From: a virus
Length of the DNA stretch: 23,509 nucleotides
UHGV virus genome: UHGV-1357133
Strand: one strand, 5' to 3'
A program made the translations under genes and the position numbers. The notes under the pieces were generated by a model that saw only the letters and a list, made by a program, of their open reading frames with translations, was not told the DNA's origin and did no database searches. Of the stretch, positions 1 through 5,718 are shown one piece after another. The first letter of the stretch is position 1; each line of letters begins with the position of its first letter.

Positions 1-54
1 AAGCAGATGACCGCCTGGCGGAAGAACTTACTTACTGGACGGACTAACCCATGA
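1..54 (+). CDS. 3' end of an upstream gene (partial, hypothetical)
   Basis: Frame 1 is open from the window edge to TGA at 52-54, which overlaps the ATG at 51-53 of the next gene (ATGA coupling). Too short to assign a product. Confidence 0.35.
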   Translation, partial: KQMTAWRKNLLTGRTNP

Positions 55-533
55 AAACTAACCACCCGGCGCACGGTCCTGTATCACTCGATCGCCTGCA
101 CCAGATACGCGAAATACTCAGCAAAGCAGCAGCACAAAGCGACGGAGGTAATCTCGGCTACGCAATGGCTGATGCTGTGAAGGTGATTGACGGGGTTCTG
201 GAGTCGATAGTCCGCGAACAAGTACGCCGTGAACATGCAGCATGGTCACTGGCTACTTTCGGCGATGTCGGTCCAGTTGGTCCGCTGAAGCACCTTTCCA
301 AAGAAGCGCTCGAGGCGGCAGCTGAACCAAGTGACCTTACCGAATGGGCTGACATGCAATTCCTGTTATGGGATGCGCAACGTCGTGCCGGTATCAGTGA
401 TGAGCAGATTACCCTGGCGATGGTAGAAAAGTTGGCGGTTAACAAACAGCGCGAATGGCCTGAGCCGAAAGATGGTGAGCCGCGTTTGCACATTAAATCT
501 GATCATCAGCCAGAGACAGAACGAAAAAAGTAG
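51..533 (+). CDS. DUF550-like phage protein (sometimes annotated dATP/dGTP pyrophosphohydrolase-like)
   Basis: 160-aa ORF with ATG start coupled to the upstream gene. The C-terminal half (EWADMQFLLWDAQRRAGISDEQI...) resembles DUF550 proteins of lambdoid prophage early regions, from memory. Confidence 0.65.
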   Translation: MKTNHPAHGPVSLDRLHQIREILSKAAAQSDGGNLGYAMADAVKVIDGVLESIVREQVRREHAAWSLATFGDVGPVGPLKHLSKEALEAAAEPSDLTEWADMQFLLWDAQRRAGISDEQITLAMVEKLAVNKQREWPEPKDGEPRLHIKSDHQPETERKK

Positions 534-614
534 AGCGCTGCGATACCTGTACTGAAGGCGCTCGCGGCGGATGTGGAACATGTATTTTTAACGGTAATTT
601 TTGATGAGGTGCTC

Positions 615-800
615 ATGACTACTACCGATTTTATGGAAGAACAGGAAGTATTTAACCTGCTTGGAAAAAAGAAAACCGCGGTATGGCGTTTACGTAAAGA
701 CCATGGTTTCCCTATGCCTGTTTTGACATATCCAACACGCTACAGTCGTAAGGCCGTAACGCGTTGGTTAGAAGATGGGGGAATTAATAAATCTAGCTAA
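615..800 (+). CDS. alpA: AlpA-family helix-turn-helix protein, putative excisionase / prophage regulator
   Basis: The track ORF begins at a GTG at 573, but the ATG at 615 has a GAGG Shine-Dalgarno 5 nt upstream. The product (EVFNLLGKKKTAVWRLRKDHGFPMPV...SRKAVTRWLEDGG) matches the AlpA/Vis/TorI pattern that accompanies P4-type integrases. Confidence 0.75.
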   Translation: MTTTDFMEEQEVFNLLGKKKTAVWRLRKDHGFPMPVLTYPTRYSRKAVTRWLEDGGINKSS

Positions 801-820
801 GTTAGTACAGTTCACATCAA

Positions 821-1336
821 CTAGGTGTTTTTTTGATCTTCAAGCATTTTTTGCAACTCTGGGTTGTCGTTCGCTTGAGTTGCTCTGTGTGAATTGTACT
901 CTTCAAGAGTTTCATTACGTTCTTTTAATTTTTGAGTGTAGGTATTGCTTATAATATCGTGGCGATCTTGTAACACCTGTTCAAGTTGCTTACAGAAATC
1001 GGCAATCTTCTCTTTAGAGATAATGTCTTTATACTTTTCAATATTTTTTCTAAGGAGTTTTTCTTTTCTTTTATTAATACTTAATAATTGTCTATTTACA
1101 CTGCCTAGTGACCATTTGAACCCAAGCGTTTTAATCCAATGAGACAAAAACATTGCCAAGCATGGGAGTGCAAGTAATATCCATGACTTAAGCGAGGATA
1201 AATCTGAATCTATAAACGATAAATGACCATCCCAAGATGCTACAACTAAAGTAACAGCCCCAGTCAAGCCACTAGCAACAGCATTCGAAATAAGAGGTAC
1301 TTTTTCGTAACTTTCAGGTGTTGATTTTTCAGTCAC
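821..1336 (-). CDS. hypothetical membrane protein (two predicted TM helices, charged coiled-coil C-terminus)
   Basis: The track ORF is 821..1366, but the GTG at 1334-1336 lies 5 nt after an AAAGGAGG Shine-Dalgarno and overlaps the stop of the upstream gene. Hydrophobic stretches VPLISNAVASGLTGAVTLVVASW and WILLALPCLAMFLSHWI are followed by a K/E-rich tail. Region is AT-rich. No family recognised. Confidence 0.6.
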   Translation of the reverse strand: MTEKSTPESYEKVPLISNAVASGLTGAVTLVVASWDGHLSFIDSDLSSLKSWILLALPCLAMFLSHWIKTLGFKWSLGSVNRQLLSINKRKEKLLRKNIEKYKDIISKEKIADFCKQLEQVLQDRHDIISNTYTQKLKERNETLEEYNSHRATQANDNPELQKMLEDQKNT

Positions 1337-1577
1337 CTGCACCTCCTTTGACTGCTTTTCCGTCACGGATTGCAGCCATAGCTACTTCATAGAACTCATC
1401 ATCAGTTGAAACATCAACAAACTGTTCATGGCTAACACCCTCATCATCAACGTATTCTAACAACAACCTATGCTGTGGAGTGCACATGTAGCGTATACGA
1501 TCAAAGAGAATCTTGAAGGCCCAGTATAGCACGGGGAGGACGCTGAAAAAGGCCAGCCAGAAAGCAAAAGCTGTCAT
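1329..1577 (-). CDS. hypothetical small membrane protein (N-terminal TM helix)
   Basis: 82-aa ORF with ATG at 1575-1577 preceded by AGGGGGGG 4 nt upstream. N-terminus FAFWLAFFSVLPVLYWAFKILF is hydrophobic. Sits 23 nt downstream of the 291-aa gene and overlaps the next gene. Confidence 0.6.
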   Translation of the reverse strand: MTAFAFWLAFFSVLPVLYWAFKILFDRIRYMCTPQHRLLLEYVDDEGVSHEQFVDVSTDDEFYEVAMAAIRDGKAVKGGAGD

Positions 1578-1600
1578 GATCCCCCCCTAATTTAACTTGG

Positions 1601-2476
1601 TTATAAAAGTTCGTTCACTCTATCAACTATGTAGGTTTTGTCCAGAGAATTCAAGTTTTCCCGAACAAGCAGGTCAACGTAGTAAACATCGCTAAAAATC
1701 CTTGATTCTCGGCCTGTACGAACCCGTTGCAAGAAGTCTTCATCTTCTATTGTAACTGTTACAGTTTCGTCTTCATAATTCGCGCGCCATCCGGTATTTT
1801 TGTCCTTGTGAATAGTAAGGAAGGTAATTGGTACATCGTCGAATTTTTGTTCAGAATATGACTGTTCCACAGGAACTCTGCGATATCTAAACGGCTCAGC
1901 TTCTTTTTCGTTAACTACCACAAAGTCCTTACCTTGAGAGTTAGAAATTTTGAATGTTTCATACCCCTCTTTTTGTAATGGGTTGTGTATTATTTTAGAT
2001 AACGCCTTCCGTATACTAGGTGATGACAGTAATGGCCTAAAGTACGACGGAGCGACAATCTCTTGCCCATCTTCAAGAATAATTTTGCAATCGCCATCTG
2101 CTGTTAAAGCAATTTTTTGAATTTGCCGCCCACTAATAGAACGGATTATTTCAATTAAAGTACTTCCGGCTGCGACTACACCAGTTCCTCCTATACCTAT
2201 GATACTTAAAATATCTAAATATTGTGTTGGATTTTGTATTACATCAATTAAATATTCAAATGACCCTTCGCGAAATGGCTCCACATCTACATTGAGATTC
2301 TCACTGGTACCATTGACAATTAAGTTTACTTCTTTAAGTAGATTATTTAATCCGTTGAGAGATTCAGTTAAAATATCAAGGTCTATTTTATGATTCTTTA
2401 GAGCTTCACCATCATATTTAACTACCAATTTATCAACTACTTCACCTTCATCCGTTACATTTCTTTTATTTTTCAT
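1601..2476 (-). CDS. hypothetical protein, 291 aa, predicted soluble, with a glycine-rich GIGGTG loop
   Basis: Long ORF, first gene of an AT-rich three-gene operon, ATG preceded by AGGAA. No TM segments seen. No family recognised from memory. Confidence 0.65.
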   Translation of the reverse strand: MKNKRNVTDEGEVVDKLVVKYDGEALKNHKIDLDILTESLNGLNNLLKEVNLIVNGTSENLNVDVEPFREGSFEYLIDVIQNPTQYLDILSIIGIGGTGVVAAGSTLIEIIRSISGRQIQKIALTADGDCKIILEDGQEIVAPSYFRPLLSSPSIRKALSKIIHNPLQKEGYETFKISNSQGKDFVVVNEKEAEPFRYRRVPVEQSYSEQKFDDVPITFLTIHKDKNTGWRANYEDETVTVTIEDEDFLQRVRTGRESRIFSDVYYVDLLVRENLNSLDKTYIVDRVNELL

Positions 2477-2567
2477 AATAACAATTCCTATTTAAGAAAT
2501 AAATATGACTTCTGTTGACTCTAAACATTTTCGTTCTAAAAATATACACTAACATACAGCTAAAAAA

Positions 2568-3737
2568 TTAACATATTTGCTTAATATGCCAGAAGATTTT
2601 GTCTGCATACAACTCATATGCCTCTTTCTGCTCCACCAGCCAATCGTGTTTGTTATAAACCGCCATCACCCCTCCCAGTTCATGCCCCAGCATCTTTTCG
2701 GTGACATGGGGCATAACCCCTTCTCCTGACAAATTGGTTACCAACGACCGCCTGAAGTCGTGCGTTCGCCATTCTGGTATATCAATTTTATCCCTTAACT
2801 TTTTCATGTAGAGATTTGCTGACGAACGATCTATGGCCTTGTCCAGTTCCTGCCCGGGGAAGAGAACATCGTTACCTGAATTAAGCAGCCTTTCCACGAA
2901 TGGCTTTACTTGGTCGAAAACAGGCCTGCGAATCACATTTCCCATCTTGGAGTGCTCTGATGGAGTTGTCCAAATCAAATCATCCATATTGAACTCGCTG
3001 GCGGTAGCAAGGCGAAGTTCCGACAACCTTGCCCCCCAAAGCAACAGAAGCTGATGAAGTACCTTGTTAGAGGTAACGATCTTGTTGTTTTCCAGCGCTA
3101 ACCATATTTTTGCCAACTCGGTATAGGTGAGAACCCGGCTACCAACATCAGGTTTCTTTCCTATGTTCTTAACACTGAGCTTCAAGACTTCGCATGAAGC
3201 GATCAACTGTCGGCTTATACACCAGTTCATTACAGATCGGAGCTGGAGAAGCAGCACTCTGGCCTTTTTTCCGTTTTTCTTTTCCTGCTTGTCGAAGAAC
3301 CTTACCCAGGCTGAAACAGGAATATTTACAACCGGTGCATCCGGGAATTCTGTGTACATGGTGTTGTACACAACAGACTTGTACAACGTTTGCGTATTTG
3401 GTTTCAGCGTTTCAACATACTTGCTCCACCACTGATCCAGACACTCTTTAAGTGTTAGCTCACCATCTTCTTTAGCAAAATAATTTTTAGGGTTTAGTCC
3501 CTTGAGGTACAATTCGCGCATCTCACCCACGATGACACGAGCATCTTTCAGAGACATTGCCGGATAGCGCCCTATAGTAAGGCGCACTGGCTTACCGTTC
3601 CAACGGTAGCGATGTTGAAACGTAATCGTTCCTGTCGGGGTTATGCGTACACTTAGACCGTCACCATCTGTCACTTCGGGTGCGCCGTTGTAGGGCTTAG
3701 CATTGATGCTGCGAAGTTTGGTATCACTGAGGGCCAC
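2568..3737 (-). CDS. int: tyrosine-type site-specific integrase, P4-like family
   Basis: N-terminus ALSDTKLRS...GLSVRITPTG...WNGKPVRLTIGRYPAMSLKDAR matches the arm-binding domain of P4-type integrases; the C-terminal region (HDFRRS...LGH...Y) fits a tyrosine recombinase catalytic domain. The track ORF starts at GTG 3758; GTG 3737 gives the family-typical MALSDTK N-terminus. Start is uncertain. Confidence 0.85.
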   Translation of the reverse strand: MALSDTKLRSINAKPYNGAPEVTDGDGLSVRITPTGTITFQHRYRWNGKPVRLTIGRYPAMSLKDARVIVGEMRELYLKGLNPKNYFAKEDGELTLKECLDQWWSKYVETLKPNTQTLYKSVVYNTMYTEFPDAPVVNIPVSAWVRFFDKQEKKNGKKARVLLLQLRSVMNWCISRQLIASCEVLKLSVKNIGKKPDVGSRVLTYTELAKIWLALENNKIVTSNKVLHQLLLLWGARLSELRLATASEFNMDDLIWTTPSEHSKMGNVIRRPVFDQVKPFVERLLNSGNDVLFPGQELDKAIDRSSANLYMKKLRDKIDIPEWRTHDFRRSLVTNLSGEGVMPHVTEKMLGHELGGVMAVYNKHDWLVEQKEAYELYADKIFWHIKQIC

Positions 3738-3741
3738 GGCT

Positions 3742-3794
3742 CTGTATCCTGTACACACTGAATTTCAGCATTCTGTACTCAATCTGTACGCAAT
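3742..3794. repeat. cluster of CTGTA(C/T) direct repeats, including tandem CTGTACTCAAT / CTGTACGCAAT
   Basis: Four CTGTA(C/T) copies read directly within 3742-3794, spanning the integrase start and its upstream region. Possible protein-binding sites; function unknown. Confidence 0.4.
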
Positions 3795-3946
3795 GGCAAG
3801 TGAACGAAGTGATTTTCTAAGCGGAAGAATGAGAAAGGATAGGAAATAAAAGGAATGAAATGCTTGATGATACGGGGAATGATAGGATAACATGCGACTC
3901 AAGCTGAATGCTTGAAAATCAGTTAGATATATGTCCCCTTAGTTAA

Positions 3947-4001
3947 ATGGATATAAATCAACATTTCACTAATAAATTGTTTTTATTGAATTTATATCCA
4001 T
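3947..4001. repeat. 12-bp perfect inverted repeat ATGGATATAAAT / ATTTATATCCAT with 31-nt AT-rich spacer
   Basis: Arms at 3947-3958 and 3990-4001 read directly from the sequence. Located in the AT-rich intergenic region between int and dinI. Function unknown. Confidence 0.5.
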
Positions 4002-4057
4002 AATTAATTTAAATAATGTACTCATTTATGTACACATAAATTCAACTTAACCCGTGC

Positions 4058-4105
4058 TTGACGTATGCTCCTGAAATAGCTTAAATACTGTATATCCAAA
4101 CAGTA
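4058..4105 (+). promoter_or_regulatory. dinI promoter with overlapping LexA (SOS) box
   Basis: -35 TTGACG (4058-4063), 17-nt spacer, -10 TTAAAT (4081-4086). TACTGTATATCCAAACAGTA (4086-4105) fits the CTGT-N8-ACAG LexA consensus and overlaps the -10. AGGAG Shine-Dalgarno at 4111-4115 precedes the ATG at 4123. Confidence 0.8.
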
Positions 4106-4122
4106 AAGTAAGGAGAAAAAAT

Positions 4123-4362
4123 ATGTTTGTTGAGCTGGTTTATGACAAGCGTAATGTTGAGGGATTGACGGGAGCCAGAGAGATCATCCTGGCTGAACTG
4201 ACGAAGCGTGTGCATCGGATTTTCCCGGATGCAGAAGTGAAGGTGAAGCCGATGCAGGCAAACGGCCTGAATAGCGACGCCAGCAAAAGCGATCGAGAAA
4301 AGCTAAACCGTATGCTTGAGGAAATGTTTGAAGAAGCCGACATGTGGCTGGTTTCAGAATAA
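4123..4362 (+). CDS. dinI: DinI-family DNA-damage-inducible protein (prophage homolog)
   Basis: 79-aa product with the DinI pattern (FPDAEV...acidic C-terminus EEMFEEADMWLVSE) and a LexA box immediately upstream. Strand is opposite to the neighbouring tail genes. Confidence 0.85.
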   Translation: MFVELVYDKRNVEGLTGAREIILAELTKRVHRIFPDAEVKVKPMQANGLNSDASKSDREKLNRMLEEMFEEADMWLVSE

Positions 4363-4521
4363 GAGCATTGTTTTGTCATATTGCATATGTAGAATCCGCA
4401 CCGGCTGGCAATCATTCAATACTCGCACTATCGAACGAACGCCAGCCTGCCGCCGCACGTTCTTGCATACGACGAGCGGCGACATCTATTAAAAGGGAAA
4501 AAGGACTAACTGCCCCTTCCT

Positions 4522-5718
4522 TTACTGCCCTTTCAGTTTGGCAATCTCAGCTTTTAACTCTTGCACTTGGCCCATTATCGCCAGGATTGCTTCATGGTGA
4601 AGTGCCGCCGCGATGCCGTAAGTATCCACTGATTCGACATTTTCAATTTTTTCCCCGTCAGGTAGTTCATAAGTCATGTTGTTGTTTTTTATCGCACCAG
4701 GAAAATATGTCCTGGCTTCACTAGCCACAAAGCCGAACCCTTGTGTTTGCGTGTTTTCATAAAACCAGGAATATCCACGCATGCTTTCCATCGCCACGAG
4801 TGGTTCAGGAATTGTCTCTAACAGGCTTTTTACCCTGATGTCTGATACAGGTTGCCAGTTACCAACCGCCCTGCCATCCGGGAAGAAGTTAAATGAGCTA
4901 CCAGATCCATCTGATCCGACATACAATTGCACAGCCCTGACATCGGTAGAATCACCACGAACAGGACCCAGAGTTAACCCACCATCAAACCATGTTGCCT
5001 GTAAATATCCAACGAACGCACCAGGGGAAATAGTTGCTGCATTGTTCCATATTTTTATGCCATTCACGTTTGCGGAGTTTTTTAAGCCTATATAACTTCC
5101 CGCAGTCGCATATATAGAACCATCAACAGTGCCGCCAGATTTATTGTTTATAGTCAGTAATCTGTTATCATCTCCAGCCGCTACAGTTCCAGCCACTGTT
5201 CCAATATTCTTTGTCGCGCTACTTCCCAGGCCTAAGTTTGTGCGAGCACCTTCTTCAGTGGTTGATCCAGTACCGCCCTGATTAACAGGCACAGCTCCAC
5301 CGGATTTAGTAGCCATGTTATCAGACAAGTATTTCCATGATGGTCCGCTGTATGTACTGCCGTCCGGCAACTTCACTGTTATGTTTCCAGATGCGCTGTA
5401 TACCTGCTGCCAGTTCTGCTTGTCGTAATTCAGTCCACGTAGCGCTTCTGCACTTTGTGCAACCAGCGCTGCAGTTACCATGTTGAGCGCCACGCGGGGA
5501 ACGGCAGACCACGCAGCTTCGGACTGTGTCGGCCCTGTGTATGCGCTGACCAGCGTCAGGCCCGTGTCACTCTCTACCGATTTAACCGGCAGAGTGTATG
5601 GTACACCTCCGACCATTACTACAACGAAATCTCCTGCAGCGAGTTCCGTTACAAATGAAGTACCGATACCCGTCACAATGTCAGAGTTATTGGTCAGGGT
5701 TAAAGTTCCTGCGGACAT
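4522..5718 (-). CDS. tail fibre protein with C-terminal intramolecular chaperone (peptidase S74-like) domain
   Basis: 398 aa, Gly/Ser/Thr/Asn-rich fibre-like sequence. C-terminal region contains SDIRVK followed by a coiled-coil tail (QVQELKAEIAKLKGQ), typical of self-cleaving chaperone domains. GAGGAAAT Shine-Dalgarno upstream. Confidence 0.75.
   Translation of the reverse strand: MSAGTLTLTNNSDIVTGIGTSFVTELAAGDFVVVMVGGVPYTLPVKSVESDTGLTLVSAYTGPTQSEAAWSAVPRVALNMVTAALVAQSAEALRGLNYDKQNWQQVYSASGNITVKLPDGSTYSGPSWKYLSDNMATKSGGAVPVNQGGTGSTTEEGARTNLGLGSSATKNIGTVAGTVAAGDDNRLLTINNKSGGTVDGSIYATAGSYIGLKNSANVNGIKIWNNAATISPGAFVGYLQATWFDGGLTLGPVRGDSTDVRAVQLYVGSDGSGSSFNFFPDGRAVGNWQPVSDIRVKSLLETIPEPLVAMESMRGYSWFYENTQTQGFGFVASEARTYFPGAIKNNNMTYELPDGEKIENVESVDTYGIAAALHHEAILAIMGQVQELKAEIAKLKGQ

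Follow-up and report, generated by a model that had tools for sequence, protein, structure and literature searches.

Known LexA-Controlled DinI-Family Genes

The association of a DinI-family gene with SOS control is an already known and common arrangement in phage genomes, and is annotated in the phi80-like phages, as well as in others. In the record of phage phi80 (Lula), for example, the dinL gene is accompanied by a "predicted LexA binding site", and is part of the order tail fiber (minus strand), dinI (plus strand), attP, and int. In the Klebsiella phage phiKO2 and the Serratia phage OS31, the DinI-family genes (gp22 and p60, respectively) are also located just past the tail genes, in the opposite orientation, with a LexA site annotated at the promoter, which gp22 shares with a divergent UmuD-like gene. 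The DinI gene of OS31 has been described in the same way, with phiKO2 being cited as LexA-regulated (PMC7556043).

[quoted passage not shown] These homologues are induced by mitomycin C, in a manner dependent on the LexA box (PMC3121763), and also by nalidixic acid (4.6- to 23-fold), with the box being located 19 nt from the ATG (PMC8072944). The real switch of induction in this case is the antirepressor gene that follows dinI, with the repressors being left uncleaved, that is, the Gifsy prophages depend on antirepressors, and not on the cleavage of CI (PMC3121763). A DinI-like domain is also present in the LexA-controlled Tum of phage 186, and in the split Tum of PSP3 and Fels-2; the Tum of phage 186 (approximately 146 aa) combines an N-terminal antirepressor half with a DinI-like half. 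[quoted passage not shown]

The window, i.e., the whole stretch of 23,509 nucleotides of the viral genome UHGV-1357133 that was analyzed here, would add one more case to this well-documented arrangement, in which a LexA-repressed DinI-family gene is found beside the tail genes of a temperate enterobacterial phage. To our knowledge, no biological role has ever been established for the DinI copies that are so common in phages.

Position of the Locus in the Phage Genome

The window belongs to a lambdoid, HK97-like temperate phage of the enterobacteria (Citrobacter, Salmonella, or Escherichia group). The tyrosine integrase gene, int (2568–3758, minus strand), which contains the Pfam domains Arm-DNA-bind_3 and Phage_integrase, is transcribed away from attP. 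The attP core (3932–3956), which is identical in sequence to the 5' portion of the tRNA-Arg gene (argW) of the host, is located between int and dinI. Positions 1–3956 of the window are 99.8% identical to an int-side prophage junction (L190), with the homology stopping at 3956, and the homology to two dinI-side junctions (L183 and L184) begins at 3932–3933. The match to the E. coli prophage stops 24 nt into the tRNA-Arg. The tRNA search found no complete tRNA in either the window or the prophage junction loci, and the phage portion of argW comprises only its 5' ~22–25 nt, that is, the attP core. The window is in the excised, or phage, configuration.

A previous, sequence-only reading of this DNA had placed the gene between the integrase and the tail fiber, on the other strand from the late operon. 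The orientation is correct, with dinI on the plus strand and the tail fiber gene on the minus strand, and the position applies to the window, but not to the lysogen, given that the location of the attP core between int and dinI would make dinI the terminal gene of the integrated prophage, at the end opposite int. In the lysogen, the host argW promoter, retained with no more than the initial ~22 nt of the tRNA gene, might read directly into dinI, which could provide a basal level of expression independent of LexA.

The tail fiber gene (4522–5718, minus strand), which was taken from the ORF list, encodes a putative S74-type C-terminal chaperone domain, with a match to Pfam Peptidase_S74 (E = 4.3e-4) that is just under the cut-off. 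This gene closes the late operon, and is convergent with dinI. A terminator-like hairpin followed by a T-run (4497–4520, minus strand) was recovered directly after this gene by the terminator scan. The synteny and the gene order are the same as in phi80, although phi80 carries, between dinL and attP, an invertase and pseudogenes that are absent from the window, as is the second LexA site predicted within the phi80 tail fiber gene. The phiKO2 prophage is a linear plasmid, and lacks both int and attP. Elsewhere in the window, the start codon of the ORF at 821–1366 (181 aa) has probably been miscalled; the neighboring ORF has 291 aa.

The DinI-Family Protein

The dinI gene (4123–4362, plus strand, including the stop codon) begins with an ATG, and encodes a protein of 79 aa. 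This protein matches the Pfam DinI family (PF06183) with E = 8.4e-24 and a score of 84.1 bits (cut-off 24.2), with residues 17–76 being aligned with positions 3–63 of the 63 in the profile, and the PDB entries 1GHH/7YWA in sequence (E = 7.6e-8). The membership of the DinI family is settled by these Pfam and PDB matches. The protein also matches PHROG 189, "RecA filament binding protein DinI" (E = 6e-22), although it covers only positions 71–150 of the 151 in this profile. A single-sequence AlphaFold model, which is of low confidence (pLDDT 63.8), has a strand-helix-strand-helix arrangement, and the best PDB match to this low-confidence model in Foldseek is 1GHH (E = 9.4e-3, TM-score 0.47).

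The closest described relative is the phi80 DinL, with 97.5% identity, while the phiKO2 gp22 and OS31 p60 proteins are approximately 60% identical. The exact 79-aa sequence is found in records of E. coli and Citrobacter sedlakii, where it is labeled "DinI family protein", and close relatives of the gene are present in at least 593 viral contigs.

The phage protein resembles the chromosomal DinI of E. coli in its Pfam family, its size, and its C-terminal acidic amphipathic helix, and would likewise be encoded by a LexA-regulated gene, although the two proteins have only around 33% identity, and the phage copy is horizontally mobile. The identification of the gene as a dinI homolog is appropriate at the level of the family, but does not extend to the chromosomal equivalog, represented by NCBIfam NF007893, for which the score of 43.9 bits does not reach the cut-off of 111. 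On these scores, the 79-aa protein is a DinI-family paralogue, rather than an orthologue or equivalog of the chromosomal DinI, and its activity on RecA could therefore differ. The contacts of the E. coli DinI with the RecA filament involve L13, L21, W71, W77, F78, E24, E69, and D76 (PMC9926225). When mapped through the PDB alignment, six of these eight residues are either identical (E24, E69, and W77) or conservatively changed (L21 to I, W71 to F, and F78 to L) in the phage protein. The D76 is replaced by Met, with the adjacent D75 being kept, and the L13 falls outside the aligned stretch, without a clear counterpart.

The LexA Box and the Promoter

The proposed promoter of dinI is formed by a -35 hexamer, TTGACG (4058–4063, plus strand), a 17-nt spacer, and a -10 hexamer, TTAAAT (4081–4086, plus strand), and is followed by the LexA (SOS) box, TACTGTATATCCAAACAGTA (4086–4105), and a predicted Shine-Dalgarno sequence, AAGGAG (4110–4115, plus strand), which lies 7 nt upstream of the ATG. 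The interval originally delimited for the locus, 4058–4362, extends from the -35 hexamer through the stop codon.

The description of the SOS box as near-consensus is well founded, given that 17 of its 20 positions match TACTG(TA)5CAGTA, and the mismatches (positions 11, 12, and 14) are all found in the variable central (TA)5, leaving the TACTG and CAGTA arms intact. When up to three mismatches are allowed, this is the only such site in the 23.5-kb window, and none of 100 shuffled sequences contained any match. The shorter pattern CTGT-N8-ACAG also occurs only once in the window, at the LexA box, with 0.25 occurrences being expected by chance. The box is located 17 nt from the ATG of dinI, and has the CTG-N10-CAG operator found at the promoter or start of the genes of the LexA regulon.

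The claim that the box overlaps the -10 hexamer is accurate for a single base, the final T of TTAAAT, which is the first base of the box; the box lies mainly on the predicted start of transcription. The -10 hexamer is weak and imperfect, and the promoter was not called by a generic sigma-70 scan because TTAAAT lacks the required A at position 2. The promoter was retained despite this because it is conserved in ten relatives with the same layout, in which a nearly invariant TTGAC(A/G) and an AAT-ended hexamer directly before ACTGT are kept, with the 17-nt spacer varying freely.

A broader comparison took in the regions upstream of related DinI ORFs (120 distinct sequences), with a box being defined as a CTG-N10-CAG that differs from the consensus at six positions or fewer, and lies no more than 90 nt from the start codon. 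A box of this type was found in 115 of these regions, against a background rate of approximately 0.012 per 90 nt at the same loci. The box may be located between the -35 and -10 hexamers, after the -10, or may be doubled, and these layouts cannot be aligned with one another, resulting in at least four unrelated promoter layouts with a LexA box. The phi80 gene, for example, has the box CACTGTATAAATAAACAGTA between TTGACA and TATAAA, at 38 nt from the ATG, with a longer leader than that of the window, whereas the distance in the Gifsy prophages (19 nt) is close to the 17 nt observed here. The retention of the box in almost all the upstream regions, and across unrelated layouts, provides strong comparative evidence for the direct control of dinI by LexA that the sequence-only reading had proposed, and the induction of the Gifsy relatives points in the same direction.

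A Possible Role in Prophage Induction

A repressor of the S24 type is encoded by a relative of the window phage, the L190 prophage, past the left end of the window rather than within it. This protein, of 236 aa, contains HTH_3 and Peptidase_S24 domains, together with the motifs SAGSG (which includes the Ala-Gly site), GDSM, and VKR, and thus has the HTH, the S24 domain, the Ala-Gly cleavage site, and the Ser/Lys dyad of a lambda-type CI repressor. The link between the window phage and this repressor could be broken by the mosaicism of phage genomes.

The locus is very probably an SOS-regulated "moron". This moron would be composed of a self-contained promoter, a LexA operator, and the DinI-family gene, inserted in a non-essential region between the last tail fiber gene and attP. 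In the undamaged lysogen, a LexA dimer would occupy positions 4086–4105, at the transcription start and beside the -10 hexamer, and would exclude the RNA polymerase. Damage to the DNA would lead to the formation of RecA filaments, the self-cleavage of LexA, and the opening of the dinI promoter. The 79-aa paralogue would then be produced, as suggested by the sequence, its comparative conservation, and the experiments on its relatives, and would bind, by homology, to the groove of the RecA filament.

LexA, UmuD, and the lambda-type CI repressors also bind in this groove. Additional DinI would most likely alter the efficiency of the filament in the cleavage of its slow substrates, such as the phage CI and UmuD, acting as either a brake or a stabilizer, and the threshold or timing of induction, as well as SOS mutagenesis, would be set by DinI. 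Given the presence of an autocleaving CI-type repressor in the lineage, the extra DinI could modulate RecA-dependent induction, and the role in the tuning of induction or of the SOS output that had been suggested for the gene is plausible. This combination of competition for the groove by DinI, LexA, UmuD, and CI with a cleavable CI-type repressor would make this phage a better system than Gifsy for testing whether DinI sets the threshold of induction.

It is somewhat unlikely that the gene is instead a cargo of benefit to the host (lysogenic conversion), which acts like MsgA, aiding the lysogen under DNA damage or host-imposed stress, and plays no role in the induction of the phage, although this possibility and the SOS-regulated moron are not mutually exclusive. 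The Salmonella MsgA is a DinI-family "macrophage survival" protein that also has 79 aa, and the closest relatives of the phage protein are called "virulence protein MsgA" in several phage records, but this name is an annotation label, rather than a test, and we know of no established mechanism for MsgA. The location at the extreme end of the prophage, beside the attachment-site DNA, is typical of morons. [quoted passage not shown] A statistical association has also been found between a prophage DinI-like gene and emerging quinolone resistance in E. coli (PMC10575684). The retention of the gene by very many functional phages, as indicated by the at least 593 viral contigs, nevertheless suggests that it benefits the phage as well.

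The Hairpin Element Downstream of dinI

A conserved element formed by two hairpins (4403–4481) is located just downstream of dinI. Stem-loop 1 (4403–4447, plus strand) has an outer stem, GGCTGGC/GCCAGCC, and an inner near-palindrome, TCATTCAATA-N7-TATCGAACGA, while stem-loop 2 (4451–4481, plus strand) has a 10-bp stem with one mismatch and the loop TCTTGCATACG, and is homologous to the terminator hairpin of dinI in the relatives. The T-run found behind stem-loop 2 in these relatives is absent from the window. In roughly two thirds of the instances of the element, a convergent ORF has its stop codon no more than approximately 30 nt from stem-loop 2. Most simply, the element is a terminator cassette, and the hairpins would represent the 3' end, or terminator, of the dinI unit at its meeting point with the convergent late operon.

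The similarity with the dinI-DinR transcript of K. pneumoniae raises the alternative that RNA is the key product of the locus, with the SOS-induced dinI mRNA giving rise, from its segment 4363–4481, to a DinR-like sRNA, or with this segment acting as a site of RNase III cleavage or retroregulation, like the lambda sib. This is distinctly unlikely, whereas the more limited proposal that the ~45-nt hairpin (4403–4447) is either a released regulatory RNA (a counterpart of DinR with another target) or an RNase III or sib-like site, which couples the convergent dinI and late transcripts, is tentative, and simply unlikely. The core of stem-loop 1 occurs unchanged in at least 93 viral contigs, and is found exactly 46 nt past the stop codon of four divergent types of DinI, a constancy that would favor a function in the RNA, although the conservation of the core in these 93 loci exists partly by construction, because the core was the search pattern. 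The flanks of the core show no more conservation than the coding sequence, in a region that is mosaic. The core is also found 3' of int genes, oriented in the same way, which is where sib/tI lies in lambda. The window and phi80 differ by approximately 3% in the 3' element (~97% identity), and by approximately 14% in the coding sequence, which also fits an RNA function. The general claim that the element is better conserved than the gene was rejected, given that it holds only for the core of stem-loop 1 and for the pair formed by the window and phi80.

The stems also covary, as would be expected of a functional RNA, with one pair of the outer stem of stem-loop 1 changing from A-U to G-C, and pairs being changed on both sides in stem-loop 2, which has many G-U pairs on the plus strand. 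The preferred strand is nevertheless ambiguous, with stem-loop 2 favoring the plus strand, but the interior of stem-loop 1 favoring the minus strand, on which the whole element also folds better. A search of positions 3600–4700 and 4340–4560 against Rfam recovered no family above the threshold. A sub-threshold match was obtained at stem-loop 2, to the CssrB 3' hairpin, on the minus strand (21.5 bits; cut-off 76), and a literature search on CssrB returned only unrelated papers. The DinR precedent is further weakened by the pairing with the E. coli ftsZ (-35 to +20), given that the best local duplex of the element (-19.3 kcal/mol) was equaled or exceeded by 24 of 100 shuffled sequences (-18.1 ± 2.4), that is, the element has no significant complementarity to ftsZ. 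This comparison was based on a windowed analysis, which replaced a whole-sequence RNAduplex run that produced meaningless long duplexes. The location of the element between convergent genes is also suited to a plain terminator or insulator.

The Interval between dinI and the Tail Fiber Gene

The stop codons of dinI and the convergent tail fiber gene are separated by only 159 nt, and no conserved ORF is found in this gap, on either strand, among the relatives of the element, which is consistent with a structured RNA. The plus-strand reading frame is wholly changed where the stems of the hairpins covary, and the minus-strand ORF contains a stop codon in most of the relatives. A search of PHROGs with two candidate small ORFs near dinI returned no match, and an antirepressor ORF of the Gifsy type downstream of dinI was rejected, given the lack of a conserved ORF.

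These observations bear on the possibility that the gene belongs to an antirepressor system, such as the 186 Tum or the Gifsy dinI-gfoA/gftA-irsA operon, with the SOS box being the induction switch of the phage. LexA-controlled operons in which a DinI homologue is accompanied by a small antirepressor have been described (PMC3121763), and the PHROG 189 profile spans proteins of the length of Tum, but the 79-aa protein consists of the DinI domain alone, and the short gap contains no antirepressor ORF, making this possibility highly improbable. The window also differs from Gifsy in the S24 repressor of its lineage, which cleaves itself, so that an antirepressor would not be needed. The LexA box can hardly be a palindrome that arose by chance, or a remnant that regulates nothing, despite the imperfect -10 hexamer and the failure of the generic scan to call the promoter, considering its absence from all 100 shuffles, its presence in 115 of the 120 related regions, in unrelated layouts, and the SOS induction observed experimentally in the Gifsy relatives.

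The DinI-family Gene and its Product

The open reading frame at 4123–4362 (+) starts with ATG, preceded 7 nt upstream by AAGGAG, and encodes a protein of 79 aa. This protein matches the Pfam DinI family at 84.1 bits (gathering score 24.2), PHROG 189 ("RecA filament binding protein DinI") and, in the PDB, Escherichia coli DinI (1GHH and 7YWA; E = 7.6e-8), which bears out the DinI-family assignment made in the sequence-only reading. The best PDB match of a low-confidence, single-sequence AlphaFold model (pLDDT 63.8) is also 1GHH, and an identical protein is already public as "DinI family protein" in E. coli and Citrobacter sedlakii. The score against the NCBIfam chromosomal-DinI equivalog is 43.9 bits, in comparison with a cut-off of 111, and by profile comparison the product is a paralogue within the DinI family.

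The cryo-EM structure of the RecA–DinI complex places the RecA contacts in a hydrophobic pocket (L13, L21, W71, W77, F78) and an acidic patch (E24, E69, D76), and the L2 loop and K232/R243/K245 patch of RecA that DinI contacts also serve LexA, UmuD, and lambda CI (PMC9926225). When the window protein is aligned with the PDB DinI, E24, E69, and W77 are identical, and L21, W71, and F78 have the conservative replacements I, F, and L, respectively, while D76 is replaced by Met, with the neighbouring D75 retained, and L13 falls outside the aligned stretch. Binding to RecA is likely, but not assured. Close relatives (L007–L086) mostly have 87–88 aa, with an additional conserved C-terminal FPTVRQVGL that is missing from the 79-aa form of the window and phage phi80. 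The downstream sequences also differ between the short and long forms.

The Predicted LexA Operator and Promoter

The region upstream of the gene (4058–4125) reads TTGACG TATGCTCCTGAAATAGC TTAAA, followed by the candidate LexA box TACTGTATATCCAAACAGTA (4086–4105), then by AAGTAAGGAGAAAAAAT and the ATG. This 20-mer agrees with the LexA consensus TACTG(TA)5CAGTA (PMC6590174) at 17 positions, the mismatches (positions 11, 12, and 14) all being in the central variable part, with both the TACTG and CAGTA arms perfect. No other site in the 23.5 kb scanned comes within three mismatches of the consensus, and none of 100 dinucleotide-preserving shuffles of the window contained such a site. The single occurrence of CTGT-N8-ACAG in the window is this same box.

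The promoter proposed for dinI was not reported by a generic sigma-70 scan, as the scan requires an A at position 2 and TTAAAT has a T there, but it is supported by an alignment of ten sequences of the same layout (two prophages encoding an identical protein, six viral contigs, the remnant at the right end of Gifsy-2, and the window). In this alignment, the −35 element, TTGAC(A/G), hardly varies, ACTGT is directly preceded by a hexamer with AAT at its end (TTAAAT, AAAAAT, CATAAT, or ATAAAT), and the box is invariant, while the 17 nt separating the hexamers vary freely, as would be expected if the promoter is real. The box had been described as overlapping the −10 hexamer; the overlap exists, but amounts to a single base, and the box covers mainly the predicted transcription start (~4093), a standard position for repression by LexA.

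Close relatives of the gene are encoded in at least 593 stretches of the viral contigs scanned. The upstream regions were compared in 120 distinct 90-nt sequences located 5' of DinI-family open reading frames, taken from the viral-contig loci and from loci retrieved by other routes, in search of CTG-N10-CAG with up to six mismatches to the LexA consensus. Such a box is present in 115 of the 120 regions, mostly with 2–4 mismatches, against a background of ~0.012 per 90 nt in the same loci. The boxes of these relatives occur in several mutually non-alignable promoter layouts, with the box placed between the −35 and −10 (as in TTGACTGTATGCATATACAGTAGTAT and TTGACACTGTATAAATAAACAGTATAAAT), immediately downstream of the −10, which is the layout of the window, or as two tandem boxes. 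As the operator is kept while the surrounding promoter is swapped, this distribution provides strong evidence of selection for the control of phage dinI genes by LexA.

Four of the five regions with no box (L008, L019, L060, and L077) retain the right half-box beside a break in the sequence, which looks like a recombination or prophage-boundary breakpoint within the operator, and would leave these genes unrepressed or without a promoter. The break follows a common sequence, GGGAAGACCCAT, in L019, L060, and L077. The fifth exception, L026, has no recognisable LexA box within 90 nt upstream.

Documented Counterparts

The arrangement found in the window is already documented in several phages. 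In the RefSeq record of phi80, the gene is annotated as dinL, with a product 97.5% identical to that of the window, and a "predicted LexA binding site" is marked in the corresponding place, with the tail fibre gene on one side and attP/int on the other. The phiKO2 annotation gives gene 22, just beyond the tail genes, as a homologue of DinI and marks a lexA binding site for it, and the same arrangement was described in the Serratia phage OS31 in 2020 (PMC7556043). The more distant Gifsy homologues have been shown experimentally to be induced by mitomycin C, with the LexA-box region being needed (PMC3121763), and in transcriptomic data their expression rose 4.6- to 23-fold under nalidixic acid, the boxes being located 19 nt from the ATG (PMC8072944). 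Direct LexA control, as proposed in the sequence-only reading, is therefore supported by the operators of the relatives across promoter layouts and by the SOS induction or LexA-site annotation of these counterparts, but it is a rediscovery. The observation is confirmed, the interpretation is supported at the level that sequence analysis allows, and the unit is an ordinary, already annotated kind of feature.

A truncated dinI-like remnant lies at the right end of Gifsy-2 (NC_010393; 238–504 of the retrieved locus), with the promoter and LexA box (TACTGTATATACAAACAGTT) intact in the window-type layout. It is located ~270 nt upstream of a 228-aa open reading frame, presumably the effector GtgE, in a region in which the record is unannotated.

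Attachment Site and Position in the Lysogen

No complete tRNA gene was found in the window, although positions 3760–3956 match E. coli prophage ends, extending up to 24 nt into the tRNA-Arg gene argW. A prophage junction on the int side (L190) is 99.8% identical to window positions 1–3956, where the homology ends and host argW-dsdC DNA begins, while two junctions on the dinI side (L183 and L184), which encode an identical DinI, match the window rightwards from 3932–3933, with host mlaA-yfdC DNA on the left. The attP core is the overlap of the two junction types, at 3932–3956, and corresponds to the 5' ~22–25 nt of argW; the 3' part of a tRNA is the more usual source of such cores. Given this overlap, the window represents the excised (phage) form, in which the order is int, attP, dinI, tail fibre. 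The placement of dinI between the integrase and the tail fibre thus holds for the window, but in the lysogen the junctions make it the terminal gene of the prophage, at the end away from int. By the same comparison, integration restores a full tRNA behind phage DNA on the int side, and leaves a truncated 5' stub on the dinI side. Many of the viral-contig relatives, among the matches listed, have dinI ~0.3–3 kb from the contig end, and other members (L187 and L188) have other integration sites. L183 has a host flank with ~82% identity to E. coli, which indicates a host of a related genus, with Citrobacter or Salmonella fitting.

In the lysogens, dinI lies ~165 nt downstream of the argW promoter of the host and the tRNA stub (~9800–10000 in L183 and L184), both of which point towards it. 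No terminator-like site was found on the + strand between the stub and the gene (window 3957–4057, in a scan that covered 3700–4700), and read-through from argW could give LexA-independent expression of dinI.

Repressor and Possible Function

The int-side junction runs past the left end of the window, and encodes RdgC (L190, 8305–9222, −), a 236-aa repressor (L190, 10385–11095, −) with HTH_3 and Peptidase_S24 domains, in which the Ala-Gly, GDSM, and VKR motifs are recognisable, and a divergent Cro-like gene. Given this repressor, the lineage appears to use RecA-stimulated repressor cleavage. No CTGT-N8-ACAG was found in this locus, which thus shows no sign of a second switch under LexA control. 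At stoichiometric levels, DinI stabilises RecA filaments, while high levels inhibit UmuD cleavage and recombinase activity (PMC6590174), and it occupies the RecA groove needed by CI (PMC9926225). A phage copy induced by the SOS response would thus be well placed to alter how fast CI and UmuD are cleaved. The one genetic test available for relatives, made in the Gifsy prophages, which use antirepressors, detected no effect (PMC3121763). As RdgC is also listed among the RecA modulators (PMC6590174), the lineage may carry two of them.

Genes of the UmuD-like or UmuC-like (IMS family) type adjoin dinI in phiKO2 (L181, 2040–2423), SaltyDalty (L004, 3634–3966), and L188 (8585–9853), and in phiKO2 the neighbour and dinI have a LexA site in common. 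This proximity fits the known effect of DinI on UmuD cleavage.

The 3' Two-hairpin Element

In the Gifsy prophages, dinI is followed by an antirepressor gene (PMC3121763), whereas the window has just 159 nt between the dinI stop and the convergent tail fibre stop. At every place where the hairpin stems covary, the sole open + strand frame in this gap is completely altered, the − strand frame is broken in most relatives, and neither candidate matched PHROGs, which argues against a Gifsy-type antirepressor here.

The ~120 nt after the dinI stop differ by ~3% between the window and phi80, in comparison with ~14% in the coding sequence. The element (4363–4481) contains stem-loop 1 (4403–4447), with an outer GGCTGGC/GCCAGCC stem and an inner near-palindrome, and stem-loop 2 (4451–4481), with the stem CGCCGCACGT/ACGAGCGGCG and the loop TCTTGCATACG. 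An exact search with the 26 specified bases of the stem-loop 1 core recovered at least 93 viral contigs, with the core located precisely 46 nt past the stop in three divergent DinI types of 79–80 aa, and ~25 nt past it in an 82-aa type. In HK446 and L123, it lies 3' of int genes, in the same orientation, without dinI. The folding energies and z-scores indicate better pairing of the inner part of stem-loop 1 on the − strand (−52.2 kcal/mol, z = −3.7) than on the + strand (−37.4 kcal/mol, z = −1.6), and the only Rfam match of the element, also on the − strand, was a sub-threshold one to the CssrB 3' hairpin.

Several pairs of stem-loop 2 are altered on both sides, with many G-U pairs on the + strand. 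The 88-aa relatives have a homologous hairpin followed by a T-run, which the window lacks, and this homologue looks like a dinI terminator. Near stem-loop 2, about two thirds of the instances have the end of a convergent open reading frame, at a distance of up to ~30 nt, and the identity of this frame varies. Beyond the core, conservation of the element does not exceed that of the gene, and the region has a mosaic make-up. Most simply, the element can be read as a 3'-end or terminator cassette that moves together with the moron and shields it from the convergent late operon. The DinR of Klebsiella pneumoniae, a small RNA cut from the dinI 3' end that represses ftsZ (PMC10907235), offers a precedent for the element being more than this, but the pairing of the window element with the E. 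coli ftsZ start region was no better than that of shuffled sequences. In phi80, a second predicted LexA site is annotated within the 3' end of the tail fibre gene (L001, 4410–4425), on the strand that reads towards the element, antisense to dinL; the window has no such site.
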